From: Shigella phage SSG23
Sequence record: PQ351811
Length of the DNA stretch: 64,000 nt
Reading direction: 5' to 3' (one strand)
Position numbers and translations under genes: made by a program. A model generated the notes under the pieces. It saw only the letters and a list, made by a program, of their open reading frames with translations, made no database searches and had not been told where the DNA came from. Below are positions 27,294-62,875 of this stretch, piece after piece. Position 1 is the stretch's first letter. Each line of letters starts with the position of its first letter.

Positions 27294-27839
27294 ATGAAAT
27301 CATTAAACCGTAAACGTAAAGCACAACGACACATGGAACACGCAAAATCAATTAATGTTGATATGACATTAGAACATATTGATGATGATTCATGTTATGA
27401 TGATGAACCAACAAATAAGATCCCTGTATGGATGGTTACGGTAAGAATTGACAATAAACAGATCGAAGAGACACACGATGCTTTAGCCTTGTTTCACGAA
27501 TGGCATCCGGTTAATATCGGGTGGGAGGAAAACAAAGCAAAAGGTCAATACTTCCTCACCTGTTCGTGTGGTGTAGCCGGATGCGCTGGGTATTGGGAAC
27601 CTGTTGTGATTCGGGTTAAAAAGGATACTGTACAATGGTCTGTGCGTAAAGAGCAGGGATACAGCAAAGGTGTGATCGGTACTGGCGAGAATGTGATTTA
27701 TCTTAAACGTAAAGATTACGAAGAGTGCCGGAAGTTTATTTTGAATATGCTGCGTTCTTATCCAGATGACAATTTCATGTTTGCCGGAGAGTACCTACCA
27801 GGCCGCCTGTGGTTGAAATCTCTCGAAAAATTTAAATAA
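27294..27839 (+). CDS. hypothetical protein
   Basis: Track ORF 27288 (GTG), ATG 27294 after GAGGTG SD; CSCGVAGCAGYW Cys cluster. Confidence 0.55.
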   Translation: MKSLNRKRKAQRHMEHAKSINVDMTLEHIDDDSCYDDEPTNKIPVWMVTVRIDNKQIEETHDALALFHEWHPVNIGWEENKAKGQYFLTCSCGVAGCAGYWEPVVIRVKKDTVQWSVRKEQGYSKGVIGTGENVIYLKRKDYEECRKFILNMLRSYPDDNFMFAGEYLPGRLWLKSLEKFK

Positions 27840-29102: not shown

Positions 29103-29588
29103 ATGAAATGGGAAGAAGGTAAGACCTATAAGTTGGGTGGAGAATACGAAAAGAGTATTTTGCGTGATTGTTGGCGTTACGAACGAAGACCTAATATTGA
29201 TGGTATGTTTACATATCTCGATAAACCATTTATTGTTGCTACGGTAGACCGTTGGGGTAATGTACGTTCAATCTATAATCACGAAGGGGATTATATTAGT
29301 TCTATCGATGTTGGTGATAATATATGGTTTTCCGATGGCGACCGAGCGTGCTTCAAAGAAGTTTTATTGCCTGGTCATGAGCATGATCTAATTGATCTTC
29401 TCAAATTGGCGATGGATAATTATAAAATTCGCTTTGAATGCAAATCACATGCGGCTATCGGTGCTAATGCATTGCGTCATATCTCCAGTTTTGAAGAGTT
29501 GAAAGATTTTCTTGACAAAATGCCGGAAAGAGTGCAAGCTATACAGGAAGCAGAGAAAGCATTAAACGAACTTGATAAAATCGGTTAA
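29103..29588 (+). CDS. paralog family A member 2
   Basis: MKWEEGKTYK...KPFIV..WFSDGDRACFKEV; C-module FLDKMPERVQAIQEAE. Confidence 0.6.
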   Translation: MKWEEGKTYKLGGEYEKSILRDCWRYERRPNIDGMFTYLDKPFIVATVDRWGNVRSIYNHEGDYISSIDVGDNIWFSDGDRACFKEVLLPGHEHDLIDLLKLAMDNYKIRFECKSHAAIGANALRHISSFEELKDFLDKMPERVQAIQEAEKALNELDKIG

Positions 29589-31344: not shown

Positions 31345-31632
31345 ATGTTAGTACACAATGCAATCGCACACATGGTTTACTCTCGATTTGGACGCATGGA
31401 AGAAATCAGTATTACCGATGCAGATTTAGATCTGATGCAAGTAGAAGGTCAGACATATCTGAAAAATAACGGCGTGAATATCGGTAAAGCGCGTGTGCGT
31501 GAATTGTTGGTTGAATATATTCTCTCTGAATTTGGCATTAGTGCTTTCGGTGTGAAAGAGATTGCACCAAAGCGAGAAATCTCTGATAAGATGATCAAGA
31601 AATGCCAGAAAGCACGACGTAAGGGTTTCTAA
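31345..31632 (+). CDS. hypothetical protein
   Basis: Track ORF 31327 (TTG), ATG 31345 after GAGGAATATATTATG. Confidence 0.5.
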   Translation: MLVHNAIAHMVYSRFGRMEEISITDADLDLMQVEGQTYLKNNGVNIGKARVRELLVEYILSEFGISAFGVKEIAPKREISDKMIKKCQKARRKGF

Positions 31633-33101
31633 TGAAGATTGAAACATTAATCGCATTGCCAGCGGCGGGGAAAACTGATGCTATACTTTCCCACGTCCTA
31701 GAGACAAAAGAAAAAGCGGTTATTGCTTCGCCATCTCGTGTTTTAAGTGAACAATCTTACAATAAGTTTAAAAGAATGGGCGGTCGTGCTGTCTTGATTG
31801 ATAGCACAAGACTAAGAAGCCTTAAGACAGTGCAAGCGTCGATAATGCAATCAGTTAAAGACGGCGCTGATGTGATATTCATTACACACACCGCGTTATC
31901 TAATATGGAACGTTCAAAAATGTTTGGTGAATATGCTCTTTACATTGATGAAGTTCCTCAACTGGTCGAATTTAATGAATATCCGTTTAAGTCTAATCTT
32001 GAACTTATCACGAAGCATTGCGAACCAATCGCCGATGAATCAGAATGCCTACAGAACCTAGTTCTAAAAGATTCTGAGAAGTCCGCTATCAAAGAAAAGA
32101 TAGAAAGTGCGAAGGATGGTACTGATATGATCGATTCTTCGCTTAGAGGGCTTTATGAGGCGTTATTAGAGAAGAAAATCAACGTTATGGTAAAACATAA
32201 CGAAGGACACCGGAAGAATGGGTCGAAAATTGTTTTCTTGAACGATAACAAACACGGTACGTGGGGAGACTTTAAAAAGGTTACGATAGCATGTGCAAAT
32301 CTCTTTGATACATACAGCGGAAAGTATCTACGATACTATGCAAATTGCGATTTTGTTCCTAGTGCGCTAGAATCGCGGTTGTATTTTAAAGAATACAAAA
32401 ATACCGATAGAGTTAATATCGTGCTAATGACCGATTCTGAAAGATGGTCCCGTCATCAATCAGAAACAAATAATACCTTTGAACGTTTGGTTGATATGGT
32501 TAAAGATGAATGTGGTGACAATTTCATATATACCGTTAACCGCGACCGAGAGGCGTGCACAAATGGTATTGGTGAGCGGATACCATACGGATCATATGGC
32601 CTTAACTCTTACATTCATCATAAAAATGTTGCTGTGATGTTCAGCTTTAACCCTCAACGGTGGGAGATTGACATTTTAAAAGGATTGGCGCATAGTTGCG
32701 ATCTCCCGACAAATGAGTTTTTGAAAGCGCGTCATGTTTCTGACTATCTGGAACCAGCATTTCAATTATGTTTGCGTTGCAACCTTAGAGACAACGAGAG
32801 CAAAGAGAAGGTTAATTTATATGTTCCTGATTGGGCGTTAGTGGACTATCTAAAAACTTTTCTTCCTAACGCCAATGTTATAACAGACCGCATGATCTCT
32901 TTAGAATGTGGTGAGCGCAAAGGTCGAAAATCGTTTAAGAAGATGTTCGATTTTAACGAGAAGGAGAACGCCAGATTTAATGGATTCAAGCACCGCATGA
33001 AGAAAAAAGGAAAAACTCTTGATCCGTCTGATGGTGAATCGGTAGAGATGGTTAGAGTGTGGATAACTAAGCAAAGAAAGTATAATAGTAATGGGGAATA
33101 G
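31632..33101 (+). CDS. P-loop NTPase of unknown function (489 aa)
   Basis: Walker A LPAAGKTDA and Walker B-like LYIDEV; occupies T4 alpha-gt slot between nrdH-like and gene 55. Confidence 0.6.
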   Translation: MKIETLIALPAAGKTDAILSHVLETKEKAVIASPSRVLSEQSYNKFKRMGGRAVLIDSTRLRSLKTVQASIMQSVKDGADVIFITHTALSNMERSKMFGEYALYIDEVPQLVEFNEYPFKSNLELITKHCEPIADESECLQNLVLKDSEKSAIKEKIESAKDGTDMIDSSLRGLYEALLEKKINVMVKHNEGHRKNGSKIVFLNDNKHGTWGDFKKVTIACANLFDTYSGKYLRYYANCDFVPSALESRLYFKEYKNTDRVNIVLMTDSERWSRHQSETNNTFERLVDMVKDECGDNFIYTVNRDREACTNGIGERIPYGSYGLNSYIHHKNVAVMFSFNPQRWEIDILKGLAHSCDLPTNEFLKARHVSDYLEPAFQLCLRCNLRDNESKEKVNLYVPDWALVDYLKTFLPNANVITDRMISLECGERKGRKSFKKMFDFNEKENARFNGFKHRMKKKGKTLDPSDGESVEMVRVWITKQRKYNSNGE

Positions 33102-33141: not shown

Positions 33142-33675
33142 GTGTCTGATTATGTAAACAATAAAGAGCTTTACGAAGAAATTTGTCGTTGGAAACAACG
33201 AATTGCAGCCGAAGGTCGACAAGTGCCAATGAGCAACCAAATCGGCCTAGCAATTATGCAAATCTCTAAAAATCTATCACGGCGTTTTAACTTTTCTGGC
33301 TATAGTCAAACGTGGCGCGAAGAAATGATCGACGATGGAATCGAAGCGGCGGTCAAGGGTTTGATTAATTTTGACGAGACAAAGTATAAAAATCCTCATG
33401 CTTACATTACGCAAGCGTGCTTTAATGCCTTTGTACAGCGCATTAAAAAAGAAAGAACAGCAACCGCCGCAAAATACAAATATTTTGTGCATCATGTGTA
33501 TGACGAACGCGACGCTGATATGTGCCAGATTGCGGATGAGGCATTCATACAGGACATTTACGATAAGATCAACAACTACGAGGAATCGGTCAATAAACCG
33601 AAAGCGCCAAAGGTTGAAGATGTATTGACCGAGGAATTGCCTAGCCTGGACCAATTTTATGAGATTGAAAATTAA
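33142..33675 (+). CDS. 55: late-transcription sigma factor gp55
   Basis: GTG start after GAGGG; [66 protein letters not shown] matches remembered T4 gp55. Confidence 0.9.
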
Positions 33676-33892
33676 CATTTCCCGTTTGCTGGAAGAAGCA
33701 GAGTTTGAAACTGACCTTGTGCCGTATTTCTCCAAATTATTTTTGAGAGATTGCGGCGTTCCGGTGATTATCGATCCGTGTAATATCAAGTCACCGGATC
33801 TTGAGGTCTTGACGGGTACAATCTCACATAGCTATAATGTATCAGAAGATGAATTTTCTTTAATCATCGACTATATCCCAGAAGGAAAATAA
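33659..33892 (+). CDS. hypothetical protein (overlaps gene 55 end)
   Basis: Track ORF; ATG inside 3-prime end of gene 55 in +1 frame; no SD. Confidence 0.35.
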
Positions 33893-33893
33893 T

Positions 33894-34181
33894 ATGACTC
33901 ACAATGAACAACATGAGCAAATTGCTGTGAATGAAGTAGACAAAGTTCAAGCAGACCTAGAGGCGAAAGCCGCTAAAAAGGCTGGAAAGATCCTGCGTAA
34001 GAACGCGCGAGAGATTGAACGCCTTAAATTGTGGGCTGAAAAGGCTATCATCGATGATAACCGTGATGCGTATATCTACGCTATCGGAAAGTTACGTGAT
34101 ATCTACAAACAGCCACACACGCCAGAACTGCTTTCTGCTATGTGGATTAGTACACGGCAAACGGTATTAAGTATGCTGTAA
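33894..34181 (+). CDS. hypothetical protein
   Basis: Track ORF; SD GAAGGAAAATAATATG. Confidence 0.5.
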   Translation: MTHNEQHEQIAVNEVDKVQADLEAKAAKKAGKILRKNAREIERLKLWAEKAIIDDNRDAYIYAIGKLRDIYKQPHTPELLSAMWISTRQTVLSML

Positions 34182-34192
34182 TGGCTTTATAA

Positions 34193-34228
34193 GGGAGACT
34201 CCGAAAGGGGTTTCCCTTTTTATTTTTC
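34193..34228 (+). terminator. intrinsic terminator
   Basis: GGGAGACTCC-GAAA-GGGGTTTCCC followed by TTTTTATTTTTC. Confidence 0.65.
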
Positions 34229-34271
34229 TATGATATAGTGAGAGCATCGAAAACGAAGAGAGGAAGAGACT

Positions 34272-35297
34272 ATGAAAATTTTGCTTTTGGGTGATCTGCA
34301 TACTGGTATCGGTGGCGATGATCCGTGGGTGCATGAGTATATTTTAGACACGATCAAGAAAGCGGTTGATTATTCTAAAGAAAATGGTATTAAGACATGG
34401 ATTCAAACAGGGGATTGGTTTGATTGCCGCAAGGCGATAACTCATGAAACCATGAAGTTTAACCGTACTAAGGTCATCCCATTACTGGAAGAGGCTGGAA
34501 TTACTTGTTATATCACGGTCGGGAATCATGATATGTTTAAACGAAACAAGATCCAGCCTAACGCACCGCGTGAAGTGTTAAGCCAGTATGATTGCATTAA
34601 GGTCATCGATAAGCCGGAAACAGTTACCTTTGATGGTGTATCGTTTGATCTGTTCCCGTGGTTTTGTGATGATAATAAATCAGAGGTTTTAGAGTTTATT
34701 CAAAATTCATTCAGCGAATATTGTGTAGGCCATTGGGAATTGTCTGGTTACTATTTCTATAAAGGTCTAAAATCCGAAGGTTATAGCGCGGACTTCCTCA
34801 AGAAATACCGTGAAGTGTTTTCCGGTCACTTTCATACTATCAGTGATGGCGGTAACGTAACGTATATTGGCACACCATACACACTAACGGCGGGTGACGA
34901 AAACGATCCGCGTGGTTTTTGGGTATTCGATACCGATACACACAAAAAAGAGTTTATCCAGAATGATAAAACATATCATGTGCGTATCACTTACCCGTCA
35001 GATGATAAAATCGACGTAGAACGCTATAAGGGGCTTAGTGTGCGTCTTATCGCAACGGTCGCTGATAATGGGTTAACTAAGTTAGAAAGCGCGTTAGAAG
35101 CCGTTGTGCATAAGCTAAAAGTGGTCCATAAGCTGGAGAGTAGCGCATCACAGGAAACAGGTGTTATTGAAGTTAAAAGCACTATTCAGATGGTCTATGA
35201 ATATCTGGAAGAACAAAACCTAGAACCGGAAGAACTTGCGGCAGTTAAGCGCATCTCTGATGAACTTTTAGCCGAAGTAAATAGCGCAAAAAGTTAG
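34272..35297 (+). CDS. 47: recombination endonuclease subunit gp47 (Mre11/SbcD-like)
   Basis: Phosphoesterase motifs LLLGDLHTG, GDWFD, GNHD, GHWE, GHFH; close to remembered T4 gp47. Confidence 0.9.
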   Translation: MKILLLGDLHTGIGGDDPWVHEYILDTIKKAVDYSKENGIKTWIQTGDWFDCRKAITHETMKFNRTKVIPLLEEAGITCYITVGNHDMFKRNKIQPNAPREVLSQYDCIKVIDKPETVTFDGVSFDLFPWFCDDNKSEVLEFIQNSFSEYCVGHWELSGYYFYKGLKSEGYSADFLKKYREVFSGHFHTISDGGNVTYIGTPYTLTAGDENDPRGFWVFDTDTHKKEFIQNDKTYHVRITYPSDDKIDVERYKGLSVRLIATVADNGLTKLESALEAVVHKLKVVHKLESSASQETGVIEVKSTIQMVYEYLEEQNLEPEELAAVKRISDELLAEVNSAKS

Positions 35298-35326: not shown

Positions 35327-35350
35327 CTCTAAAAATTGATGGAGGTTATT

Positions 35351-41728: not shown

Positions 41729-42091
41729 ATGATTGAAATTAATTTGATTAATCCTGAAAACTTCCTTAAAATTAAGGAGACTTTAACCCGCTGCGGCATT
41801 GCCAACAATCGAGACAAGACGCTGTATCAGTCTTGTCATATTCTCCAGAAGAAGGGGCGTTATTACATCGTTCATTTCAAGGAGTTGTTGAAATTAGATG
41901 GTCGTAGTGTTAAAATGACGTGGGAAGATGAATTACGCCGTAATAACATTGCAAAACTTCTTGCGCAGTGGAATCTATGCACCCTGATTGATAGTGATTT
42001 TGAAACTACCGAAGTTAATAATTTCCGCGTACTGTCTTTTAAACAGAAAGAAGAGTGGACGCTGATCGAGAAATATCAGATCGGACGCTAA
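41729..42091 (+). CDS. regA: translational repressor RegA
   Basis: KETLTRCGIANNRDKTLYQSCHILQKKGRYYIVHFKE..NNFRVLSFKQKEEW matches remembered T4 RegA. Confidence 0.88.
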   Translation: MIEINLINPENFLKIKETLTRCGIANNRDKTLYQSCHILQKKGRYYIVHFKELLKLDGRSVKMTWEDELRRNNIAKLLAQWNLCTLIDSDFETTEVNNFRVLSFKQKEEWTLIEKYQIGR

Positions 42092-42112
42092 GATACTGAT
42101 GGGATAGGGGTG

Positions 42113-42141
42113 TTGACAAACTAGTTCGACTCCCCTATAAT
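42113..42141 (+). promoter_or_regulatory. sigma70-consensus promoter upstream of gene 43
   Basis: TTGACA-17-TATAAT. Confidence 0.7.
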
Positions 42142-42173
42142 GAGTGTCTTTCGTAAGTGAAGGAGTTTATATT

Positions 42174-44852
42174 ATGTATTTTCTGTCATGTGAGCGAGTA
42201 GGTGATAAGATCTACGAGCGTTATATTGATGATGCTGGACAAGAACAAGAGCGTTACGTTGAATATACGCCAACATTATTTCATCATGCCGCGCCTGGTA
42301 TGGTTACTAATTATAAAGATATCTATGGCAAGCCTTGCATTGCTAAAAAATTCCCATCTATGAACGAGGCCAACAAATGGCGTAAAAAGATGGGGGAAAT
42401 GGGGCAAGAGGCACTAGGGATGGATGATTTTATCATCTCCTATCTGTCTGATACATATAAAGGTGAGATTCGATATGACCGAAATAAAATCCGTGTAGCA
42501 TGGGTTGATATTGAGGTCACTGCACCGGAATTTCCTAAACCAGAAGAGGCGAAATATCCTATCGATGCAATTACGCATTATGACTCCGTACATGATCGTT
42601 TCTTTGTATTTGATTTGAAAGGAAAAAACGGTGAAATCTGGGAAGCAAGAAAGTCTATTCTTCGACCTGATATTGTAGAGCGCGTTGTTTATAACGTCTA
42701 TGATACAGAAGATGAATTGCTATTAGAATACATCCGATTCTTTGAGGAAAATCGACCAGTTGGCTTCACTGGCTGGAACACAGAAACATTCGATATCCCG
42801 TATATCATTAAGCGTATCAGTAATAAGTTTGGAAGTCGAACGGCAAACCGTTTAAGCCCGTGCGGTAAGATTAAATCCCGAATCTCACAGGATGATTTTG
42901 GCAACGAGCGTGAAGCATTTACGATCATGGGGATCGAAAGCCTTGATTACATTGACCTGTACAAGAAATTTAGCTTTACGACTCAACCAACATATGCATT
43001 AGATTATGTTGCTGAATATGAGACAGGAATCGGTAAGGTTGATTATGATGGTCCGTTAAAGAAATTGCGTGATGACAACCATCAACTTTACATCGATTAT
43101 AACATCGGCGACGTTGACCGTGTGCTGGCGATTGATAAAAAACGTGGTTTTATTGATCTGGTGTATAGCCTATGTTTCTATGCAAAAATTAAATTTAACC
43201 ATGTTTATAATCCGATGAAAGTATGGGATGCTATTATCTTCGGATCTCTGAAAGCAGAGGGTAAAGTAGTACCGGAAAATAAGATACAGCCTAAGCAGAC
43301 TTATCCCGGCGCATTTGTAAAAGAACCTGTGCCGAATGCTTACCGTTGGATGATGAGCTTTGACTTAACAAGTCTTTATCCATCTATTATTCGACAGGTT
43401 AATATTTCGCCGGAAACTATCGCTGGGTCTTTTGATGCTGCACCGATGCACGAGTATATCAATAAAACTGCCCCGCGTCCGAGTGATGAGTATTCTTGCT
43501 CGCCTAACGGATGGATGTATCGAAAAGATATTCATGGTATCGTACCGATTGAGATTAAAAAGGTATTCGACCAGCGTAAGCAGTACAAAAACATGATGTT
43601 GGCATGTGATCGCAATGCTGAACTCTGTAAAGCGATTCTACACGATGAAAATCATGTTTATGGGGGAACCATTAGCTATAGCGTTGAAGTTCGTCATGAC
43701 TTCGATGAAGCGTTTAAATCTATGCTTTCGGAATTGAGCAAAGATACCCTAGAAAAATTGCTGGAAGAATGTAAAGACGAGTCGATCTTGTGCAACACAA
43801 ACCAGCTTTCTCGAAAAGTTTTGATCAACTCCCTTTATGGTGCGTTGGGGAATCCTAAATTCCGCTTTTATGATCTCCGTAACGCTAGTGCGATCACATT
43901 GTTTGGTCAGCTTGCAATTCAGTGGATTGAGCGTAAGATTAACGAATACTTAAACGAGCTTTGCGGAACAACTGATTTTGCATATGTTCGTTATTGTGAT
44001 ACTGACTCCGTTTATGTGCTGGTTAACAATGTTGTTGATAAGGTTGGCGGGGAAGACCGTTTCGACGATACCGAAAAACTTGTTGACTTCCTTGATAATT
44101 TCGGTAAGCATAGAATGGAACCGATTATCGACAAGGGATATCGCGAGTTATGCGAGTACATGAACAACTATGAGCACTTGATGTTTATGGACCGTGAGGC
44201 AATTGCCGGACCGCCTTTGAAGTCTGCGGGTATCGGTGGATTCTGGACTGGTAAAAAGCGTTATGCTCTTAATGTTTGGGATATGGAAGGAACGCGCTTT
44301 GCTGAACCTAAGCTAAAAATCATGGGCTTGGAAACACAACGTAGTTCTACTCCTAAAGCATGTCAGAAATCACTGAAAGAATGTATTCGTCGTATGTTGC
44401 AGGAAGGTGAAGAGTCATTGCAGGAATACTACGGTATTTTTGAGCAAGAATTTAGAAAACTTGACTATCTTGAGGTTGCTGCGGTATCATCTGCAAACAA
44501 CCTACAGAAATACAGCGATTCAAACGGGTATCCGATTAAGGGTTGTCCGTATGCGGTTAAGAGTGTATTGTGTTATAATCGTAATGCTCGAAAATTCGGA
44601 CTAGATCCGATTCGTGAGGGCGAGAAAGTTATGATCGTACCGCTCAAAGATCGAAATCCGTTTGGAGAAATCTGTTTTGGTTGGTTGTCTGGTACTCGTA
44701 TTCCGCCAGAAATTGAATCAGAAGTGTTAAAGTGGTTAGACTGGCCTTTGTTGTTTAATAAGACTTTCGTCAAACCACTGGAGAACATTACCACGGCTGC
44801 AAAGCTGCAATATGAAAAAGTTGCTTCTCTGACTGACCTGTTTGACATTTAA
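42174..44852 (+). CDS. 43: DNA polymerase gp43 (family B)
   Basis: Exo motifs VAWVDIEV and YNIGDVD; pol motifs DLTSLYPSII, CDTDS; ATG 42174 after AAGGAG (track start 42144 is GTG). Confidence 0.95.
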   Translation: MYFLSCERVGDKIYERYIDDAGQEQERYVEYTPTLFHHAAPGMVTNYKDIYGKPCIAKKFPSMNEANKWRKKMGEMGQEALGMDDFIISYLSDTYKGEIRYDRNKIRVAWVDIEVTAPEFPKPEEAKYPIDAITHYDSVHDRFFVFDLKGKNGEIWEARKSILRPDIVERVVYNVYDTEDELLLEYIRFFEENRPVGFTGWNTETFDIPYIIKRISNKFGSRTANRLSPCGKIKSRISQDDFGNEREAFTIMGIESLDYIDLYKKFSFTTQPTYALDYVAEYETGIGKVDYDGPLKKLRDDNHQLYIDYNIGDVDRVLAIDKKRGFIDLVYSLCFYAKIKFNHVYNPMKVWDAIIFGSLKAEGKVVPENKIQPKQTYPGAFVKEPVPNAYRWMMSFDLTSLYPSIIRQVNISPETIAGSFDAAPMHEYINKTAPRPSDEYSCSPNGWMYRKDIHGIVPIEIKKVFDQRKQYKNMMLACDRNAELCKAILHDENHVYGGTISYSVEVRHDFDEAFKSMLSELSKDTLEKLLEECKDESILCNTNQLSRKVLINSLYGALGNPKFRFYDLRNASAITLFGQLAIQWIERKINEYLNELCGTTDFAYVRYCDTDSVYVLVNNVVDKVGGEDRFDDTEKLVDFLDNFGKHRMEPIIDKGYRELCEYMNNYEHLMFMDREAIAGPPLKSAGIGGFWTGKKRYALNVWDMEGTRFAEPKLKIMGLETQRSSTPKACQKSLKECIRRMLQEGEESLQEYYGIFEQEFRKLDYLEVAAVSSANNLQKYSDSNGYPIKGCPYAVKSVLCYNRNARKFGLDPIREGEKVMIVPLKDRNPFGEICFGWLSGTRIPPEIESEVLKWLDWPLLFNKTFVKPLENITTAAKLQYEKVASLTDLFDI

Positions 44853-44913
44853 GATAAAGTGTGTATAATGGCGGGTGTTGGGTGACGATACCCGCCAATG
44901 TGAGAAATATACT

Positions 44914-45102
44914 ATGAGAGACATTGAAAAGATTAAACGTGAACGAGAGGAAGGTATAGAGCATTTCAAGAAAGTTCACGGAAATCACAGCAACGAAGTA
45001 TTTGTGACGATCGATGTTGATGCGATGAAAAAGTTAATTCAAGAGCACTACAAAGATCGAATAACAATGAAGCAATTAAAGTATTACGGATTAACTGAAT
45101 AG
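44914..45102 (+). CDS. small hypothetical protein
   Basis: Track ORF 44875..45102; ATG 44914 chosen; only ORF in the 43-uvsX gap. Confidence 0.45.
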   Translation: MRDIEKIKREREEGIEHFKKVHGNHSNEVFVTIDVDAMKKLIQEHYKDRITMKQLKYYGLTE

Positions 45103-45113
45103 AGGTATTAATA

Positions 45114-46184
45114 ATGTCTGTACTGGAAAAACTGAAAAAGAACTCTACCCTGAAAACTACTGCGGTACTGTCTAAATCCAGCTTCTTTAACGAAAAAACA
45201 AATACTCGCACTAAGATCCCGATGCTGAATATTGCGTTTTCTGGTGATCTTAAAAAAGGCTTTCAATCTGGTCTGATTTTCTTTGCTGGTCCGTCTAAGC
45301 ACTTTAAATCAAACATGGGATTAACTTGTGTTAGTGCATACATGAAACAGAATCCTGATGCGGCTTGCTTGTTCTTTGATTCTGAGTTTGGTATTACTTC
45401 CGCATATCTGGAATCTATGGGAGTAGATCCTGATCGCGTGGTGCATGTTCCAATCAAGAACATCGAAGAACTTAAATTTGAAATCATGAACCAGCTTGAG
45501 CAAATTACCCGCGAAGATAAAGTGATTATCTTTATTGACTCAATCGGTAACTTAGCAAGTAAAAAAGAAGTTGAAGACGCGATTAATGAGAAATCCGCGC
45601 AGGATATGACGCGAGCTAAAGCACTTAAAGGCTTGTTCCGTATGGTTACGCCATATCTGACTATGAATGATATCCCGTGCATCGCCATTAACCACACTTA
45701 CGAAACGCAAGAAATGTTTAGTAAGACCGTTATGTCCGGCGGTACTGGCGCGATGTATTCAGCCAATGAAGTTTTCATTATCGGTCGTCGTCAGCAGAAA
45801 GAAGGAACCGAAATTACTGGTTATGATTTTATCCTGAATGCGGAAAAATCACGAACCGTTAAAGAAAAATCTAAGTTCCCGATTAGCGTAACCTTTAGCG
45901 GTGGTATCGATCCATATTCTGGCTTGCTGGAATTGGCTGTAGAGTTAGGTTGGGTAGTGAAACCGTCAAACGGCTGGTATTCTCGTTCCATCCTGAATAC
46001 AGAGACCGGAGAGATGGAAACCGAAGAACGCAAGTTCCGTGCTAAAGAAACCAATAGTATTGAGTTCTGGAAACCACTTCTGACAAACGATAAGTTTAAC
46101 GAAGCAATCAACGATCATTATAAGCTGGGACAAGTGATCAGCAATGAAGCAGTTGACAAAGAAATCGAAGATATGTTAGCATAA
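45114..46184 (+). CDS. uvsX: recombinase UvsX (RecA-like)
   Basis: Walker A GPSKHFKSN, Walker B IIFIDS; 356 aa; SD GAGGTA. Confidence 0.92.
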   Translation: MSVLEKLKKNSTLKTTAVLSKSSFFNEKTNTRTKIPMLNIAFSGDLKKGFQSGLIFFAGPSKHFKSNMGLTCVSAYMKQNPDAACLFFDSEFGITSAYLESMGVDPDRVVHVPIKNIEELKFEIMNQLEQITREDKVIIFIDSIGNLASKKEVEDAINEKSAQDMTRAKALKGLFRMVTPYLTMNDIPCIAINHTYETQEMFSKTVMSGGTGAMYSANEVFIIGRRQQKEGTEITGYDFILNAEKSRTVKEKSKFPISVTFSGGIDPYSGLLELAVELGWVVKPSNGWYSRSILNTETGEMETEERKFRAKETNSIEFWKPLLTNDKFNEAINDHYKLGQVISNEAVDKEIEDMLA

Positions 46185-46194
46185 CAATGGTAGT

Positions 46195-46217
46195 AAAGGG
46201 GCTACTTGCCCCTTTTT
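46195..46217 (+). terminator. intrinsic terminator
   Basis: AAGGGGC-TACTT-GCCCCTT followed by TTTC. Confidence 0.55.
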
Positions 46218-46239
46218 CATATCTAGAGAGGATTATATT

Positions 46240-46557
46240 ATGGATAAGAAACCAACAAGTTTAGAAGAAGCACACGGCTTGATTCAAGAAGCAATGAAGA
46301 CAGTTATTCAGGAATTGATAATTGTTGATGAAGAGGGAGAGCATCATATTGTCTATATTCATAATGTTGAATACGATCCAGACACTAAAGGTATTGTGGT
46401 CGACTACTCCACGCCGTCAGATCGTGATGTGGTATATCCTCACGTCATTAAGGCGTTAACCGCGCAGATCAAAGAAGCAGAAGAAAAGTTGAAAAAGGAA
46501 ACTTTCTGGTATAAACTCAAGACCTTTGTTATGCGTGTAGTCGGGGGCTATGTATGA
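46240..46557 (+). CDS. 40: gp40-like head vertex assembly chaperone
   Basis: 105-aa ORF between uvsX and gene 41 as in T4; GAGGATTATATTATG start. Confidence 0.55.
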   Translation: MDKKPTSLEEAHGLIQEAMKTVIQELIIVDEEGEHHIVYIHNVEYDPDTKGIVVDYSTPSDRDVVYPHVIKALTAQIKEAEEKLKKETFWYKLKTFVMRVVGGYV

Positions 46558-47966
46558 TTAAAACTATCTTTTCACAGTTGATTTACAATGGCGCATTCTT
46601 TACGAATGTATGGCCTCACCTTAAAGCGGACTACTTCACCGAAGACGAAGAAAAACTGATTTATAAGCTGATTAAAAAGCACGTAGACGAATATTCTAAT
46701 ATTCCTACGCCAACTGCATTACAGATTGCTTTAGACAAGGAGAGAGGCAATCAGACAACATATGAAGGGGCTAAAACTCTTCTCGATTCGCTGGAGAATA
46801 CACCGGAAGACCTTGATTGGTTAATGAAGGAAACCGAAAAATTTATCCGCGACCGCGCTATGTATAATGCAATGTCACGGGCGCTAGAGATTCAGGCGAA
46901 CGCACAACTACCAAAAGAGAAACAGAATAAGAAATTGCCAAGTGAAGGCGCTATTCCTGAGATCATGCAGGAAGCACTATCCATTACGTTTGATTCTGAT
47001 GTAGGTCATGACTGGTTTAATGACTTTGAAAAACGATTCTTGTTATATCAGACTAAAGCGAATAAGATCCCGTTTAAGCTGTCTATTCTGAATAAAATCA
47101 CGAAAGGCGGGGCAGAGAAAAAGACATTGAATGTTTTACTTGCTGGTGTAAACGTTGGTAAATCGTTGGGATTGTGTTCTCTTGCTGCGGATTATATGGA
47201 ATGTGGTTATAATGTTCTGTATATCTCAATGGAGATGGCAGAGCATGTCGTAGCCAAACGTATTGACGCAAATTTGCTTGACATTACCTTAGATGAATTG
47301 GATGATGGCAATGTTTCCTTTGCTGAATATTCCGCACGCATGAAACGCGTCAAGAATAAGAAAGCTGGAGAACGTCCAATCGGCAAGCTGATGATCAAAC
47401 AGTATCCGACTGGTGGCGCGAACTCCAATCACTTTGAGGCGTTAATGAATGAATTGCGACTCAAGAAACAGTTTAAACCTGATGTTGTGATTGTTGACTA
47501 TCTGGGGATTTGCGCATCGTCTCGCTTGCGTGTATACTCTGAAAATAGTTACACACTAGTTAAGGCTATTGCGGAAGAACTTCGCGGATTTTTTGTTAAG
47601 TGGGATGTTGTTGGTTGGACTGCGGCACAGACTACCCGCGCGGGTTGGGATGCTTCCGACCTTAACATGAGTGATACCGCTGAATCAGCAGGTCTTCCGG
47701 CTACAGCCGATTTTATGTTGGGTGTAATTGAGACCGAAGATCTTGCAAAAATGGGTGTTCAATTACTCAAGCAGATTAAATCTCGTTACGGTGATAAGAA
47801 CTATTATTCACGGTTTAACGTTGGTGTGAAAAAAGGCAATCAGCGTTGGTATGAAGTCCCAAACCAGATCGCAGATCAGGAGAATGCACAAGTTAAACCA
47901 CAAAGCGCACAGCAAGCCGAGAAACGAGAAAAACTCGACGAGCTAGCAAATAACATGACTTTCTAA
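46554..47966 (+). CDS. 41: replicative DNA helicase gp41 (DnaB-like)
   Basis: Walker A GVNVGKS, Walker B VVIVDYLG; 470 aa. Confidence 0.92.
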   Translation: MIKTIFSQLIYNGAFFTNVWPHLKADYFTEDEEKLIYKLIKKHVDEYSNIPTPTALQIALDKERGNQTTYEGAKTLLDSLENTPEDLDWLMKETEKFIRDRAMYNAMSRALEIQANAQLPKEKQNKKLPSEGAIPEIMQEALSITFDSDVGHDWFNDFEKRFLLYQTKANKIPFKLSILNKITKGGAEKKTLNVLLAGVNVGKSLGLCSLAADYMECGYNVLYISMEMAEHVVAKRIDANLLDITLDELDDGNVSFAEYSARMKRVKNKKAGERPIGKLMIKQYPTGGANSNHFEALMNELRLKKQFKPDVVIVDYLGICASSRLRVYSENSYTLVKAIAEELRGFFVKWDVVGWTAAQTTRAGWDASDLNMSDTAESAGLPATADFMLGVIETEDLAKMGVQLLKQIKSRYGDKNYYSRFNVGVKKGNQRWYEVPNQIADQENAQVKPQSAQQAEKREKLDELANNMTF

Positions 47967-49590: not shown

Positions 49591-50619
49591 ATGATTTACT
49601 ACGCAGATTATGAAATAGCGGAAAAAGCCATATACGGCGAACGAAATTTTAAACGGTTGCATACTAGCTCATTTACGCTGGTCTGTAGTTGTCCGATCTG
49701 CGGTGACTCAAAGAAAAATCATACTCAAGCGCGATTCCGTATCTATACCTATAAGGATAGTTTGCGTTGTGGTTGTTTCAACTGTAACTACAATCAGCCG
49801 TTAGGTGAATTTCTCAAACAGTATAAGCCGGACCTATTCAGGGAATGGCTTATGGAACGACGGAAGGAACAAGGCGACCACAAGAACACCACGTTCAAGC
49901 CACTGAAAAAGGTAGAAAAGCCGGAGATTAAGAAAGTGCAAACATTGCCTTTCTGCGAGAGATTAGATACTCTTCCGGCTAATCATCCTATAATAAAGTA
50001 TGTCAGTGATCGTTGCATTCCCAACGATAAATGGGATCTTCTGTATTTCACGAGAGAATGGCAAAAGGTAGCAAATCACATTAAAGCGGATACCTTCAAG
50101 AATCCGCAACCTGAACCGCGTTTAGTGATTCCTATCTTTAACCGTGAGAACAAGATAGAATCCATTCAGGGGCGAGCATTGAGAAAGGATTACGGAAAGA
50201 CCAAATATATGACGATTAAAACTCATGAGTTAGCGAGTAAGGTCTACGGTCTTGAACGTGCTGATCCGAGCAAACCAGTGTACTTCTTAGAGGGTCCGAT
50301 AGATTCCCTGTTCATTGATAATGGATGTGCTATCACTGGCGGTACTTTGGGATTGGATGAAATTCCTTTCCCTGATCAGCGAGTGTTTGTACTTGACGCC
50401 GAACCACGGTCAGCCGATACAATGCACCGACTGGAAAAGTTTATCAATGCAGGGGAAAAGATTGTATTGTGGGATCGTTGCCCGTGGCATTCTAAAGACG
50501 TTAACGCCATGATTCAGGACGAGGGCGCTACACGCGACCAGATCATGGAATATATCAAAGAGAACACCGTACAAGGTCTGATGGCTAAAATGCGGTTTAT
50601 GAAATATTGTAAATTTTAA
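49591..50619 (+). CDS. 61: DNA primase gp61
   Basis: N-terminal zinc ribbon CSCPICGDS...CGCFNCNY, TOPRIM-like EGPIDSLF and VLDAEPR; close to remembered T4 gp61. Confidence 0.9.
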   Translation: MIYYADYEIAEKAIYGERNFKRLHTSSFTLVCSCPICGDSKKNHTQARFRIYTYKDSLRCGCFNCNYNQPLGEFLKQYKPDLFREWLMERRKEQGDHKNTTFKPLKKVEKPEIKKVQTLPFCERLDTLPANHPIIKYVSDRCIPNDKWDLLYFTREWQKVANHIKADTFKNPQPEPRLVIPIFNRENKIESIQGRALRKDYGKTKYMTIKTHELASKVYGLERADPSKPVYFLEGPIDSLFIDNGCAITGGTLGLDEIPFPDQRVFVLDAEPRSADTMHRLEKFINAGEKIVLWDRCPWHSKDVNAMIQDEGATRDQIMEYIKENTVQGLMAKMRFMKYCKF

Positions 50620-50633
50620 TTAATGAGGTGAAT

Positions 50634-51152
50634 ATGTCAGAATTTAATTCTTGCGCTGGTCTGGTTAGCGACGAAACTATGTCTAAAGCTGGTATTGCGT
50701 ATTCCGAGGCAATCACTAGCGGCAAAGATCCGCTGCAAGTAATGTTAGATATGCAAAAAGGCTTACAGGTCGCACTAGCTGATAAATTTGAGTGGGTGCC
50801 GCATCCTGATAAGCTGGAAACTTGCGGGGAGATCCTTGATTGGATGAAGTTGTGGGATGACGCAATCGACGACGAGACACGAGAACTTTATGTTGCCCTG
50901 GGTGGCATGTCAAATGGCAAAGATGCAAGCGCAATTACTAAAGTGTGGAAGAAGAACCACGGCGAAGCACGAGCGCGTAAATTTGCTGATCTGTCAGATG
51001 ACGATAAAATCGAAATTGCGATGGAATTGATCGATATCTGGCATTTCGTGCTGATTAAAATGCTGGGCTTAGGTTTAACCGCTAAGGATATCTTCAAGCT
51101 GTACTACCTGAAAAATGCTGAAAATTTCGCCCGTCAAGAACGCGGCTACTAA
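50634..51152 (+). CDS. 56: gp56-like dCTP/dUTP pyrophosphatase (MazG-like)
   Basis: KDPLQVMLDMQ, HPDKLET, ELIDIWHFVL, KLYYLKNAENFARQ resemble remembered T4 gp56; adjacent to gene 61 as in T4. Confidence 0.65.
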   Translation: MSEFNSCAGLVSDETMSKAGIAYSEAITSGKDPLQVMLDMQKGLQVALADKFEWVPHPDKLETCGEILDWMKLWDDAIDDETRELYVALGGMSNGKDASAITKVWKKNHGEARARKFADLSDDDKIEIAMELIDIWHFVLIKMLGLGLTAKDIFKLYYLKNAENFARQERGY

Positions 51153-55612: not shown

Positions 55613-57436
55613 ATGAGTGAGTTCCGCATTTTATCGGATCGTGAACATGTCCTTAAGCGTGCAGGAATGTACATAGGATCAACTACTTATGAAGAACATC
55701 AACGTTTCCTGTTCGGTAAGTGGACAAAAATTTCATACGTTCCTGGACTGGTTAAAATCATTGATGAGATCATCGACAACTCTGTAGATGAGGCGATCCG
55801 CACTAACTTTGAATTTGCCAATGTGATTAGCGTCGATATCCAAAACAATATTGTTACGGTAACAGACAATGGTCGCGGTATTCCTCAACATATGGTTACT
55901 ACTCCAGAGGGTACGCAGATTCCGCAACCTGTAGCCGCATGGACACGAACAAAAGCCGGGTCTAACTTTGATGATACCAATCGATTAACGCAAGGGATGA
56001 ACGGCGTAGGATCGTCGTTGTCAAATTTCTTTAGCGATTGGTTTACTGGTGTAACCTGTGACGGTGAAACAGAAATGACCGTTCAATGCACAAATGGTGC
56101 TGAAAATATCACATGGTCATCAAAACCATCAAAATTAAAGGGAACAAAGGTTACATTTTGTCCAGACTTCGATCACTTCGAAGGTTATATGATGGACAAC
56201 TCTGTTTTAGATATCGTTCATGATCGTCTGCAATCATTGAGCGTAATATTTCCGAAGATCACGTTTAAGTTTAATGGTAAACGTATTGTTAGTAAGTTCA
56301 AGGAGTATGCTAAACTCTATAATGATGATCCGTTTGTCATTGAAGATAAAAACTTTTCACTTGCCCTAGTTCCTGCGGTTGAGGGTGAAGGTTTTAAATC
56401 TGTATCCTTTGCTAATGGTCTGTTTACCAAAAACGGGGGAACACACGTTGATTATGTGATGGATGATCTTTGTGAAGAGATTGTAAAACGAATCAAGAAA
56501 GAATATAAGGTTGATGTTACTAAAGCTGCGGTTAAGTCTGGTTTGACCTGTATCCTTATTGTTCGTGAATTGCCTAACCTTCGTTTTGATTCACAGACAA
56601 AAGAGCGATTGACTAACCCGACTGGTGATATCAAGCGTCATATTGATCTGGACTTTAAAAAACTGGCTAAGGTCATTGCTAAGAAAGAAAACATTATCAT
56701 GCCTATTATTGCTGTAGTTCTAGCACGCAAAGAGGCAGCAGATAAAGCGGCAGCGACTAAGGCAGCAAAGGCAGCAAAACGGGCTAAGGTTGCAAAACAC
56801 GTTAAAGCTAACCTTATTGGAACTGACGCAGAAACTACCCTGTTTCTGACGGAAGGTGATTCCGCAATCAACTATCTGATTTCTGTACGTGATCAAGATT
56901 TACATGGCGGTTTCCCGTTGCGAGGTAAAACTCTTACAACGTGGGAACAACCGGAGGCAAAGATCGTTAAGAATGCCGAAATTTTTAACATCATGGCGAT
57001 CACTGGCTTGCAATTTGGTGTTGATGCATTGGAAGTTATGCAATACAAAAATATTGCGATTATGACTGACGCGGATACTGACGGGATCGGATCTATTAAG
57101 CCTAGTCTGATCTCTTTCTTTGCACGTTGGCCTGAATTGTTCGAAGATGGACGAATCCGGTTTATCAAAACACCTATTATCATTGCAGAACCAAAGAAAG
57201 GTGATGATGTTCGATGGTATTATGACCTAGAAGATTTCGAGAACGACCGAGATAATATCAAAGGTTATAACATTCGATATATCAAAGGGTTAGCATCGCT
57301 TACAGAATCAGATTATCATCGCGTGATCAATGATCCTGTCATGGAGATCATCACGTTACCGGAAAACTATAAAGAGCTATTCGATTTGCTCTATAGCGAA
57401 GATTCAGACCGCCGTAAAGAGTGGATGTGTAGCTAA
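55613..57436 (+). CDS. 39: DNA topoisomerase II large subunit (gp39, apparently fused with gp60 region)
   Basis: GHKL ATPase motifs DNSVDEA, DNGRGIP, GMNGVGSS; TOPRIM LFLTEGDSA and MTDADTDG; 607 aa. Confidence 0.9.
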   Translation: MSEFRILSDREHVLKRAGMYIGSTTYEEHQRFLFGKWTKISYVPGLVKIIDEIIDNSVDEAIRTNFEFANVISVDIQNNIVTVTDNGRGIPQHMVTTPEGTQIPQPVAAWTRTKAGSNFDDTNRLTQGMNGVGSSLSNFFSDWFTGVTCDGETEMTVQCTNGAENITWSSKPSKLKGTKVTFCPDFDHFEGYMMDNSVLDIVHDRLQSLSVIFPKITFKFNGKRIVSKFKEYAKLYNDDPFVIEDKNFSLALVPAVEGEGFKSVSFANGLFTKNGGTHVDYVMDDLCEEIVKRIKKEYKVDVTKAAVKSGLTCILIVRELPNLRFDSQTKERLTNPTGDIKRHIDLDFKKLAKVIAKKENIIMPIIAVVLARKEAADKAAATKAAKAAKRAKVAKHVKANLIGTDAETTLFLTEGDSAINYLISVRDQDLHGGFPLRGKTLTTWEQPEAKIVKNAEIFNIMAITGLQFGVDALEVMQYKNIAIMTDADTDGIGSIKPSLISFFARWPELFEDGRIRFIKTPIIIAEPKKGDDVRWYYDLEDFENDRDNIKGYNIRYIKGLASLTESDYHRVINDPVMEIITLPENYKELFDLLYSEDSDRRKEWMCS

Positions 57437-60785: not shown

Positions 60786-60846
60786 TTCTGGTATAATGAT
60801 GTGAATCGGGCGGCGATAGTCGCCCACTAATAGAGGAATGAATACT

Positions 60847-61839
60847 ATGACTAAAGCAAAAATCACCGTCTCTGACCGTAACGTTCAATGCCTGGACTCT
60901 GCGAAACAAATCAAACTGGCTAAACAGTGGGGCGAAGGTAAGTTTACTACCCGCGAAGCACTTGCGGCAGCATTTGGTGTATCTCGTCGCACTGCCTCCC
61001 GTGTATTACTGATTCAGAAAGACGCAGTAGCGGAAGGTCGCAAGGCACTGGAAAACCGTAAAGCACGCCGTAAAACCAGTAAAGGAAAAGGCGGTGAACG
61101 CGCAAAAAAGCCCGTGACTACTTCCTCAAAAATCGTAGCAATAGCCTCATCTAAATTCATTACTATTACATGTGGTGACATTGTTTATACTGCTGACCCA
61201 TCACATGTTAACTTTAATGAAGCACTGGAAGCGATTAAACAAAATGATTTCATCAAAGCTATTACGCTGATTGACATTAAGAAAGCGGTTGAAGTATATT
61301 ATCACGGCGCTTTCCGTATCGAAAATGGCATTGTGTATTATCATAATATTGTTCTTGATAATAATCTGACTCGTCGAGTTGTTGAGTCGATTAAAGAGAA
61401 TAAGCCATATACGCACTATCTGAACTTCTTTGAGAAGTGCAAGAAAAACCCTAGCCGTAAGGCGGTAGATCGTCTGTTTGACTTCTTAGAGCACAACGAC
61501 ATTGAGATCGGGGAAGATGGTTGTTTCTATGCATGGAAACGTGTTGATGTTGATTATAAAGATTTCTTTACGCATACGTTTGATAATAGCCCAGGGCGCA
61601 CGGTTAAAATGAAGCGTAAAGACGTGGACCCAGATGATGACCGCACTTGCTCTAATGGCCTCCATGTTGCAGCGAAACACTACATTCCGCACTATGGCGG
61701 TGGACGAGGCCGAATCATTAAATGCAAAGTTGATCCGCGTCACGTTGTAAGTATTCCGAAAGATTATGCGAATGCCAAAATGCGCTGTCATCGTTACTAT
61801 GTGGTTGAAGATGTAACCGAAGGTTTTAGCCATTACTAA
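60847..61839 (+). CDS. rIIB: rIIB protein
   Basis: SKKAVDRLFDFLEHNDIEI..DGCFYAWK..NGLHVAAKHYIPHYGG..PRHVVSIPKDYANAKMR matches remembered T4 rIIB; ATG 60847 after GAGG. Confidence 0.88.
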   Translation: MTKAKITVSDRNVQCLDSAKQIKLAKQWGEGKFTTREALAAAFGVSRRTASRVLLIQKDAVAEGRKALENRKARRKTSKGKGGERAKKPVTTSSKIVAIASSKFITITCGDIVYTADPSHVNFNEALEAIKQNDFIKAITLIDIKKAVEVYYHGAFRIENGIVYYHNIVLDNNLTRRVVESIKENKPYTHYLNFFEKCKKNPSRKAVDRLFDFLEHNDIEIGEDGCFYAWKRVDVDYKDFFTHTFDNSPGRTVKMKRKDVDPDDDRTCSNGLHVAAKHYIPHYGGGRGRIIKCKVDPRHVVSIPKDYANAKMRCHRYYVVEDVTEGFSHY

Positions 61840-61853
61840 CAGAGGAATTGATT

Positions 61854-62171
61854 ATGATTGATATGAAGGTTACTTGCGAAAGTGCACATGTTGAAGTAGA
61901 ACAGGTATTATATCCATCTCAACGCGTTACGGTGACTTTAGACGAGGTGGATCTGGCTAATAGTGTTACCGTTGAAGATATTGCTAACGAGTATGACCAT
62001 GATGAACTGTTAGATGCAATCCCTGAACATGTTGTCATTCAGCATGTAGTAAGCAATAATGATCCATCGACTTTCATTAAAGAATATGGCGCTGATGAAA
62101 TGCTCGATGAAATTGGCGAAAAGATTGTTATTGCATGGCTTGAAAACAACGGTTATACTGTAGAACAATAA
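61854..62171 (+). CDS. acidic hypothetical protein
   Basis: Track ORF 61848 (TTG), ATG 61854 after AGAGGAA. Confidence 0.5.
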   Translation: MIDMKVTCESAHVEVEQVLYPSQRVTVTLDEVDLANSVTVEDIANEYDHDELLDAIPEHVVIQHVVSNNDPSTFIKEYGADEMLDEIGEKIVIAWLENNGYTVEQ

Positions 62172-62178
62172 TCAACAT

Positions 62179-62200
62179 AGGCCGCTTTGCGCGGCCTTTC
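62179..62200 (+). terminator. intrinsic terminator
   Basis: AGGCCGC-TTTGC-GCGGCCT followed by TTCTT. Confidence 0.5.
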
Positions 62201-62216
62201 TTAGAGGGAATATATT

Positions 62217-62510
62217 ATGACGGTCACGATTATTACCAAATACGACGACGAAAATGTGATTTACGGTGATGTGGTTGTTGTTCACGGTCGTAGCATGAAA
62301 GTTACTGGTAATTGTAAAGATGGTGCTATTATTTGCGGTGAACTTGTGCGAACCGTCAATCCTATCACCGACGAACAAAAGCGAGACATTATCAGAAAAT
62401 TTAAAGACAGCGGATATTGTAACGTTGTGGTGATTCAAGAAAAATTTGAAGTAGGACACCTATACACAAACCAGAAAACAATTCCAGTATCAATGATGAA
62501 AGGCGGTTAA
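62217..62510 (+). CDS. hypothetical protein
   Basis: Track ORF after AGAGGGAATATATTATG. Confidence 0.5.
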   Translation: MTVTIITKYDDENVIYGDVVVVHGRSMKVTGNCKDGAIICGELVRTVNPITDEQKRDIIRKFKDSGYCNVVVIQEKFEVGHLYTNQKTIPVSMMKGG

Positions 62511-62512
62511 TA

Positions 62513-62875
62513 ATGCTAGGTCATTCTAAAATAGAAGATTGCTCATTCAGAGCAATGAAAGATGATTTTTCTGTCCTGTATGCGTCTATCCGAGAATTGT
62601 TTGTAGATTTTAAGCAATTCAGGGAATACAAAGGCGTTAAGATGCGGGAGTGGGTATTCTGGCCTTTCTATATCATTACTCTGTTTTCTATGGTATTTTG
62701 TTTTGTCGGGATCACTATCGCTAGCTTTGTCACTTGCGTTTTCCTGATTATCCGGTGTATCATGTTTGCTTTGATTGCTGCCCCGTTTATTGTTTCAATC
62801 CTTCCGTTAAAATGGCTATTGGATTGGGCTGATAAATCTGATAAAGTAAAGAATGTGATTTGTAAGCGTGTATGA
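62513..62875 (+). CDS. membrane protein
   Basis: Track ORF; two strongly hydrophobic segments. Confidence 0.5.
   Translation: MLGHSKIEDCSFRAMKDDFSVLYASIRELFVDFKQFREYKGVKMREWVFWPFYIITLFSMVFCFVGITIASFVTCVFLIIRCIMFALIAAPFIVSILPLKWLLDWADKSDKVKNVICKRV

Follow-up and report, generated by a model that had tools for sequence, protein, structure and literature searches.

The phage genome examined here is that of an RB49-like phage whose cytosine is, with high probability, unmodified; the enzymes it retains would make up an hmC-free pathway, and its DNA would be protected without hypermodification of its bases. The prediction of unmodified cytosine is based on the gene content of the whole genome, an Asn residue in thymidylate synthase (Td), the avoidance of palindromes, and the published chemistry of RB49 and TB34. 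Among T4 relatives, RB49-type phages have served since the late 1990s as the standard case of unmodified cytosine DNA. As a discovery the finding carries little weight: it is correct yet describes an ordinary, well-documented trait of RB49-like phages, and the gene pattern was already known (Petrov 2010, PMC2993671; Nikulin & Zimin 2021, PMC8056088; AEM 2026). The new element of this analysis is the palindrome avoidance.

The window, that is, the whole stretch of 64,000 bases that was analysed, matches Shigella phage SFHK24 base for base (PQ351812.1, record positions 35,342–99,341, + strand), which made a whole-genome search for gene 42 feasible. It covers the arm of the genome devoted to replication and nucleotide metabolism. 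The taxonomy line of this record reads Straboviridae; Krischvirus, and the recorded host is Shigella flexneri. For the search, the complete, circularly permuted record of 168,820 bp was put together from its four segments. A megablast search with window positions 42000–47000 matched 62 phage records, the best being SFHK24 at 100% identity, and 58 records span at least 80% of this 5-kb query. RB49 shares 96.9% nucleotide identity over the 5 kb around 43–uvsX; this high identity, together with collinearity with RB49, places the phage in Krischvirus. The Krischvirus ('pseudo-T-even') phages RB49, phi1, and JSE show the same order of gene 43, one small ORF, and uvsX, with the 62-aa product of this ORF 98%–100% identical, and they differ from SFHK24 at the strain level.

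Several further features of the window were recorded. A 715-aa ORF with a weak Ig-like match occupies 11446–13593 (+), and the segment 11539–13554 has no counterpart in the Krischvirus phage SAP, representing a strain-specific replacement; smaller SFHK24-specific segments relative to SAP lie at 2483–2682, 27340–27822, and 29130–29388. An ORF at 15231–16010 (+) matches the tail-fibre adhesin Gp38 over the full length of its domains (PF05268, E = 2.6e-73, and Gp38_N). It sits in the early-gene region, distant from the cluster of long tail fibre genes, where only a 79-aa ORF follows the distal fibre gene at the site normally taken by gene 38. The large topoisomerase II subunit is encoded by a single 607-aa ORF (55613–57436, +), which corresponds to a fusion of T4 genes 39 and 60 and has neither the mobA insertion nor the gene 60 bypass element.

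Sequence analysis of the junction between gene 43 and uvsX revealed the following features.
42174–44852, + strand: gene 43 DNA polymerase, 55% identical to T4 gp43 over 903 aa, as annotated in PQ351812.1
44842–44869, + strand: sigma-70 early promoter TTGACA-N16-TATAAT, matching the consensus at 12 of 12 positions and overlapping the gene 43 stop codon
44869–44897, + strand: 12-bp G+C-rich stem-loop directly 3' of the –10 box, MFE –27 kcal/mol, z = –6.2 versus shuffles
44914–45102, + strand: 62-aa ORF, PHROG 12120 (E = 4e-42), the sole gene in the 43–uvsX gap
45114–46184, + strand: uvsX recombinase, 64% identical to T4 UvsX

The gap between the two genes measures 261 bp (44853–45113) and contains the single ORF of 62 residues plus a stop codon, in keeping with the 260 bp and one 63-codon ORF reported in the preliminary description. 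In T4, the same interval spans 3,635 bp; its record agrees with the earlier statement that imm, 42, and bgt (b-gt) lie there, and adds imm.1 and segA. The distant T4 relative Aeromonas phage 31.2 has gene 42 directly after gene 43, which suggests that the 43–42 linkage is old. Most simply, the Krischvirus state would reflect loss or replacement at this junction. In the corresponding region of phage 31.2 (L015:1761-4482), gene 43 is annotated as two DNA polymerase ORFs, and gene 42 is followed by gene 40, not uvsX.

The promoter at 44842–44869 is one of nine perfect TTGACA-N16–18-TATAAT matches in the window (16054–60411). Chance alone would give 0.12, and every one of the nine lies on the + strand, in agreement with the early promoters of RB49 and phi1, which have been described as near-perfect sigma-70 sequences. 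The 43–uvsX gap has no match to any Rfam family. The stem-loop at 44869–44897 likely serves gene 43 transcripts as a 3' end, a stabiliser, or a terminator, and with the promoter it would form a PeSL-like composite. PeSL cassettes, described in RB49 and phi1 by Krisch's group and linked by them to module shuffling in these phages, consist of a G+C stem-loop that immediately precedes a near-perfect sigma-70 promoter, with a Shine–Dalgarno sequence and a start codon coming next (PMC4122927). The segment 44842–44897 likewise combines a promoter and a strong stem-loop, but here the stem-loop comes after the –10 box and not before the –35 box.

The 62-aa ORF is at least 96.8% identical at the amino-acid level across 58 Krischvirus records. 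Its relatives outside this group, at 45%–50% identity, are found in Akiravirus and Jedunavirus, unrelated phages with genomes of about 45–49 kb; the Akiravirus relative is a stand-alone ORF, and the one in Klebsiella Jedunavirus forms the first 52 residues of a DUF2800/PD-(D/E)XK nuclease. A role as a recombination accessory protein was considered and dropped, since these relatives are insufficient to assign a function. An Imm analog was ruled out, as the protein bears no similarity to T4 imm or imm.1.

Two further loci, at which T4 carries alpha-gt and denB/ndd, were compared in the same manner.
31632–33101, + strand: 489-aa DEAD-like P-loop protein (Pfam DEAD, E = 1.4e-6; PHROG 2467)
33142–33675, + strand: gene 55 late sigma factor, 61% identical to T4 gp55
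33659–33892 and 33894–34181, + strand: homologs of T4 a-gt.5 and a-gt.4 (tblastn E = 2e-7 and 8e-12)
34182–34271, + strand: empty alpha-gt slot, a spacer of 90 bp ahead of gene 47 that contains a terminator-like hairpin and a T-run
34272–35297, + strand: gene 47 (SbcD-like nuclease subunit), 56% identical to T4 gp47
60838–61839, + strand: rIIB, 44% identical to T4 RIIB
61854–62875, + strand: three small ORFs (105, 97, and 120 aa) in PHROGs 14049, 14759, and 16033, families of unknown function
62883–64000, + strand, running off the window: gene 52 topoisomerase subunit, 51% identical to T4 gp52

At the position of the 90-bp spacer, T4 carries a-gt.3, a-gt.2, mobB, a-gt, and 47.1. An unrelated P-loop protein had been assigned to the alpha-gt slot; this assignment does not hold, as the interval between genes 55 and 47 consists of the a-gt.5 and a-gt.4 homologs plus the spacer, and the DEAD-like protein lies upstream of gene 55, in the 55.x region of T4. 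Between rIIB and gene 52, T4 encodes denB.1, denB, ndd.6–ndd.1, ndd, stp, ac, and 52.1. Only the three small ORFs occupy this interval in SFHK24, and T4 denB and ndd have no match genome-wide, confirming the reported absence of denB/ndd. The three T4 intervals of 3,635, 3,152, and 2,760 bp correspond to 261, 596, and 1,043 bp, respectively, in SFHK24.

We then turned to the complete genome. A six-frame tblastn search of all 168,820 bp with T4 proteins found no homolog of gp42, a-gt, b-gt, alc, denB, ndd, or arn, nor of imm, imm.1, motA, or asiA; the genome-wide search for gene 42 suggested in the preliminary description therefore came back empty. The only match of T4 gp42 was a weak one (E = 0.013) to td, with the same result in SAP. 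The T4 a-gt and b-gt queries gave no tblastn match (E > 0.6) across the genome. Pfam searches of 30 proteins, mostly large hypotheticals, revealed no glycosyltransferase, TET/JBP, or second TS-family enzyme, and scans of over 30 proteins with Pfam, NCBIfam, and PHROG revealed no sugar-nucleotide enzyme, with many proteins falling into no family; overall, roughly half of the ORFs could be placed in none. In sum, of the T4-type hmC system, gp42, the glucosyltransferases, and alc/denB/arn are missing, and gp56 is present. The accessory genes alc, denB, and arn serve to discriminate against cytosine DNA or to shield hmC DNA, and these three, like ndd, would be of use only alongside hmC DNA. Furthermore, the specificity motif of Td, PFNVAS, has Asn at the position where gp42 has Asp, and its catalytic Cys is intact. 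Asn at this position specifies dUMP in thymidylate synthase, and dCMP hydroxymethylase has Asp. The td gene itself (PQ351812.1 121510-122742, outside the window) encodes 410 aa, with an in-frame insertion of about 120–145 aa after the YG..W motif, where E. coli ThyA proceeds almost directly to DQI; the insertion is also found in SAP (97.8% identical) and may be an enlarged small domain or the degenerate remnant of a mobile element.

This gene content agrees with that published for the group. Genes 42, denB, and alc are confined to the T-even, JS98, RB69, CC31, Acinetobacter, and 44RR-type phages (Petrov et al., Table 4, PMC2993671), and the RB43 and RB49 groups have only homologs of DenA and the dCTPase-dUTPase, plus group-specific cytosine methyltransferases (Nikulin & Zimin, PMC8056088). 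Like SFHK24, RB49-type phages have been described without gene 42, glucosyltransferases, alc, and denB and with genes 56 and denA (PMC2993671, PMC8056088). The absence of hmC genes at syntenic positions in Krischvirus was stated explicitly in 2026 (PMC13390438).

The chemistry of close relatives points in the same direction. HpaII and NheI cut RB49 DNA but not T4 DNA, and RB49 served as the unmodified control in that work (Yaung et al., PMC4041780); LC-MS of Krischvirus TB34 detected only canonical bases (PMC13390438).

The enzymes retained in the window that bear on nucleotide metabolism and methylation are as follows.
20427–21239, + strand: Dam-family N6-adenine DNA methyltransferase, 46% identical to T4 Dam, at a non-syntenic position
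49591–50619, + strand: gene 61 primase (by annotation), 14 bp upstream of gene 56, with the dam slot of T4 empty
50634–51152, + strand: gp56 ortholog (dCTPase/dUTPase family, all-alpha NTP pyrophosphatase), 51% identity, 173 aa, E = 1.5e-53

Both a gp56-like NTP pyrophosphatase and Dam had been recognized at these coordinates, and both identifications are borne out. The former is homologous to T4 gp56 over its full length; it scores 23.3 against Pfam dUTPase_2 (cut-off 22.9), matches PHROG 173 (E = 6e-32), and conserves the acidic metal-binding motifs IDDE(F/T)RE and EL(V/I)DI(F/W)HF in the alignment with T4. A PDB sequence search with this protein gave no informative match. The Dam protein scores 155.8 against TIGR00571 (cut-off 114.85) and matches Pfam MethyltransfD12 (PF02086, E = 7e-32), with DPPY at residue 179. 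Its position differs from that in T4: T4 dam lies between genes 61 and 56, and the SFHK24 gene is about 30 kb away, adjoining gene 49. Other orthologs found by tblastn are Cd, DenA, and Frd, which are 56%, 49%, and 34% identical to their T4 counterparts, respectively; no trimeric Dut homolog was found in the genome with an approximate query sequence.

Gene 56 is present in nearly all T4 relatives, including those without gene 42 (PMC2993671, Table 4), and its presence is therefore no sign of an hmC system. Giant T4-like phages without gene 56 carry a host-like dUTPase instead (Petrov et al., PMC2993671), an indication that dUTPase activity is what has been conserved in gp56. We propose a putative scheme for nucleotide supply in SFHK24. 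The gp56 ortholog would hydrolyze dUTP and dUDP, and probably some dCTP and dCDP, to the monophosphates; Cd would convert dCMP to dUMP, and Td, backed by Frd, would convert dUMP to dTMP. Acting together, gp56, Cd, and Td would keep uracil out of DNA and adjust the pools to a genome of 60% A+T, and the DNA would be made with ordinary dCTP. Two points count against this explanation: a strong dCTPase would be wasteful for a cytosine-DNA phage, and DenA is retained in a phage presumed to have cytosine DNA. T4 DenA (endonuclease II) attacks cytosine DNA.

To test the DNA chemistry from sequence alone, all 64 six-base palindromes were counted against a fourth-order Markov expectation in the SFHK24 genome, the window, and T4 (95 kb). 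The observed/expected ratios, grouped by the number of G/C positions in the palindrome, are given below.
SFHK24 genome: 0.86 with no G/C, 0.76 with two, 0.32 with four, and 0.21 with six
Window only: 0.88 with no G/C, 0.74 with two, 0.29 with four, and 0.33 with six
T4 (95 kb): 0.90 with no G/C, 0.94 with two, 1.00 with four, and 0.66 with six

In the 168.8-kb SFHK24 genome, 22 of the 64 palindromes are absent, all of them containing C/G, despite expected counts of up to 70. They include TCCGGA (0 observed/70.5 expected), GAATTC (0/47.6), AAGCTT (0/38.8), GGATCC (0/34.0), AGCGCT (0/29.1), and CCGCGG (0/27.5); non-palindromic hexamers have a median ratio of 1.00. T4 displays no such hexamer avoidance, with 52 GAATTC and 58 AAGCTT sites against zero of each in SFHK24. 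As T4-like cytosine hypermodification would remove type II selection against C-containing sites, the avoidance can be read as a signature of restriction-exposed, unmodified cytosine, and long exposure of a lineage's cytosines to restriction enzymes would be expected to leave this pattern. GATC shows no avoidance (969 observed versus 919 expected). Moreover, TGATCA, the BclI site that Dam blocks, persists (92/98), whereas GGATCC, the BamHI site, which is insensitive to Dam, is lost (0/34). The retention of GATC and TGATCA fits, as indirect evidence, a phage Dam that would protect GATC. In T4 the opposite holds, GATC being three-fold under-represented (106 observed versus 324 expected).

Escape from restriction in SFHK24 involves the elimination of sites. 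Dam methylation of GATC would probably add to it, judging from the family membership of the enzyme and the non-avoidance of its site, and two further site-specific methyltransferases encoded outside the window may contribute. Taken together, our results favor the first of the two readings in the preliminary description, namely unmodified cytosine DNA with gp56 acting mainly as a dUTPase. It is supported by the lack of a hydroxymethylase or glycosyltransferase, the Asn of Td, and the site avoidance, as well as by the RB49 digests (PMC4041780), the TB34 LC-MS (PMC13390438), and the lack of a Dut homolog. The preliminary description as a whole proved essentially right: the gap, denB/ndd, gp56, and Dam stood, and the P-loop gene did not.

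Three other explanations were weighed against the main one. That the hmC genes only seem missing, through a fragmentary window or a gap in assembly or annotation, was a natural concern as long as the sequence at hand covered 64 of some 169 kb; the probability of this is now negligible, as the search of the complete 168,820-bp record and of the complete SAP genome has already refuted it, and 58 related records share the arrangement of 43, ORF, and uvsX. The second earlier reading, a different cytosine modification encoded elsewhere, survives weakly, in the form of site-specific methyltransferases and in the unexplained claim for SAP discussed below. Methylation of a subset of cytosines at specific sites (5mC/N4mC) by methyltransferases encoded outside the window would be compatible with the main explanation, and we regard it as possible but rather doubtful. 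The best candidate is a 238-aa protein (PQ351812.1 141951-142667) that resembles C5-methyltransferases in its FDGSG (motif I), FPPCTN (Pro-Cys of motif IV), and IENP (motif VI) sequences, matches PHROG 757 'DNA methyltransferase' (E = 6e-91), and is annotated in TB34 as a hypothetical C-5 cytosine methylase; a DNA-cytosine methyltransferase is also listed as specific to the RB49 group (PMC8056088). However, searches of Pfam, NCBIfam, and PDB sequences gave no match to this protein, which shows no evident target-recognition domain. A second enzyme, a 279-aa NPPF methyltransferase, is more likely an adenine methyltransferase. In addition, TB34 showed no modified bases in LC-MS (PMC13390438), and the HpaII and NheI sites of RB49 are cut (PMC4041780). 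The gene of the NPPF enzyme (L004:19645-20484, – strand, outside the window) is Eco57I/MTS-like and sits among baseplate genes with two small ORFs. Two genes downstream of the 238-aa protein (PQ351812.1 141951-143516 region), a 172-aa protein carries a GmrSD_N/DUF262 domain (E = 8.6e-20); speculatively, such a GmrS-like domain could let a phage whose own DNA is unmodified attack hmC phages that infect the same cell.

A more radical alternative is that some or all Krischvirus phages make (glycosyl-)hmC DNA via a pathway unrelated to gp42 and the glucosyltransferases, with its genes among the ORFs of unknown function shared with the window and with gp56, Cd, and dNMP kinase feeding it. It stems from a report on Krischvirus SAP, whose cytosine was found by HPLC/MS and BrxU sensitivity to be fully replaced, about 1/3 by 5-hmdC and about 2/3 by alpha-gentiobiosyl-mdC (PMC13390438). 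The same 2026 paper gives SAP as 99.96% identical to TB34 and offers neither candidate genes nor an explanation (PMC13390438). In our comparison, the complete SAP genome likewise has no gp42, a-gt, b-gt, alc, denB, or ndd, repeating the gene pattern of SFHK24, and its gp56, Td, Cd, Dam, and methyltransferases are 96%–98% identical to those of SFHK24. A hidden pathway in SAP could accordingly extend to SFHK24, and the many ORFs without a Pfam match would leave room for it. Nevertheless, we consider it very improbable. Despite its 99.96% identity to SAP, TB34 is unmodified (PMC13390438), as is RB49 (PMC4041780), and no second TS-family enzyme or glycosyltransferase was detected. SAP also lacks the same 22 C-containing hexamer palindromes, with two more absent, a loss that would have no selective reason were all its cytosines glucosylated; T4 shows no such avoidance. 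The palindromes thus provide an argument against the SAP claim from sequence alone. Given that SAP shares its modification profile with seven Tequatrovirus phages from the collection it belongs to (PMC13390438), a mixed or swapped lysate suggests itself, and a mixed or swapped SAP stock appears more likely than a hidden pathway. Over the first 50 kb compared, SAP and TB34 differ by 8 mismatches and 11 gaps. In the TB34 record (OX001802.1), the essential genes uvsW, gp29, gp4, gp7, and inh are split, although SAP and SFHK24 have each of them in one piece; many of the differences between SAP and TB34 thus probably reflect erroneous indels in the assembly of TB34 and not biology.

In summary, this study describes SFHK24 as an RB49-like phage with predicted unmodified cytosine and a restriction-site avoidance that partly answers the question of Petrov et al. 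of how unmodified genomes escape host restriction (PMC2993671). Phages with unmodified cytosine are sensitive to classical restriction and Cas9, and their DNA is readily cloned and sequenced; RB49-type phages also transduce plasmids, which is relevant to the safety of phage therapy (PMC12115623). A different genus, Pseudotevenvirus (RB43, RB16), compared here by publication only, has likewise been described without hmC genes and with homologs of DenA and the dCTPase-dUTPase, but has ndd and a canonical C5-cytosine methylase (PMC8056088, PMC12115623). T4 dC mutants, like RB49, show high plasmid transduction (PMC12115623).

The comparison with T4 itself shows a shared backbone from which the hmC system is missing. 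The two genomes are collinear through nrdD, 55, 47, 46, 45, 44, 62, regA, 43, and uvsX, and onward through 40, 41, 61, 56, modA, srd, dda, dexA, 39, rIIA, rIIB, and 52, and the orthologs gp56, Cd, Td, Frd, DenA, and Dam are 34%–56% identical. T4 has 42, a-gt, b-gt, alc, denB, ndd, arn, imm, motA, and asiA, whereas SFHK24 has none of them. T4 dC mutants (56-, denA-, denB-, alc-) package cytosine DNA, for which genes 56 and denA must be inactivated. These mutants resemble SFHK24 in carrying out T4-type replication on cytosine DNA without Alc and endonuclease IV. They differ in that they have lost 56 and denA, both of which SFHK24, as a presumed natural cytosine-DNA phage, keeps; the activities or the regulation of the two retained enzymes would thus have to suit cytosine DNA.
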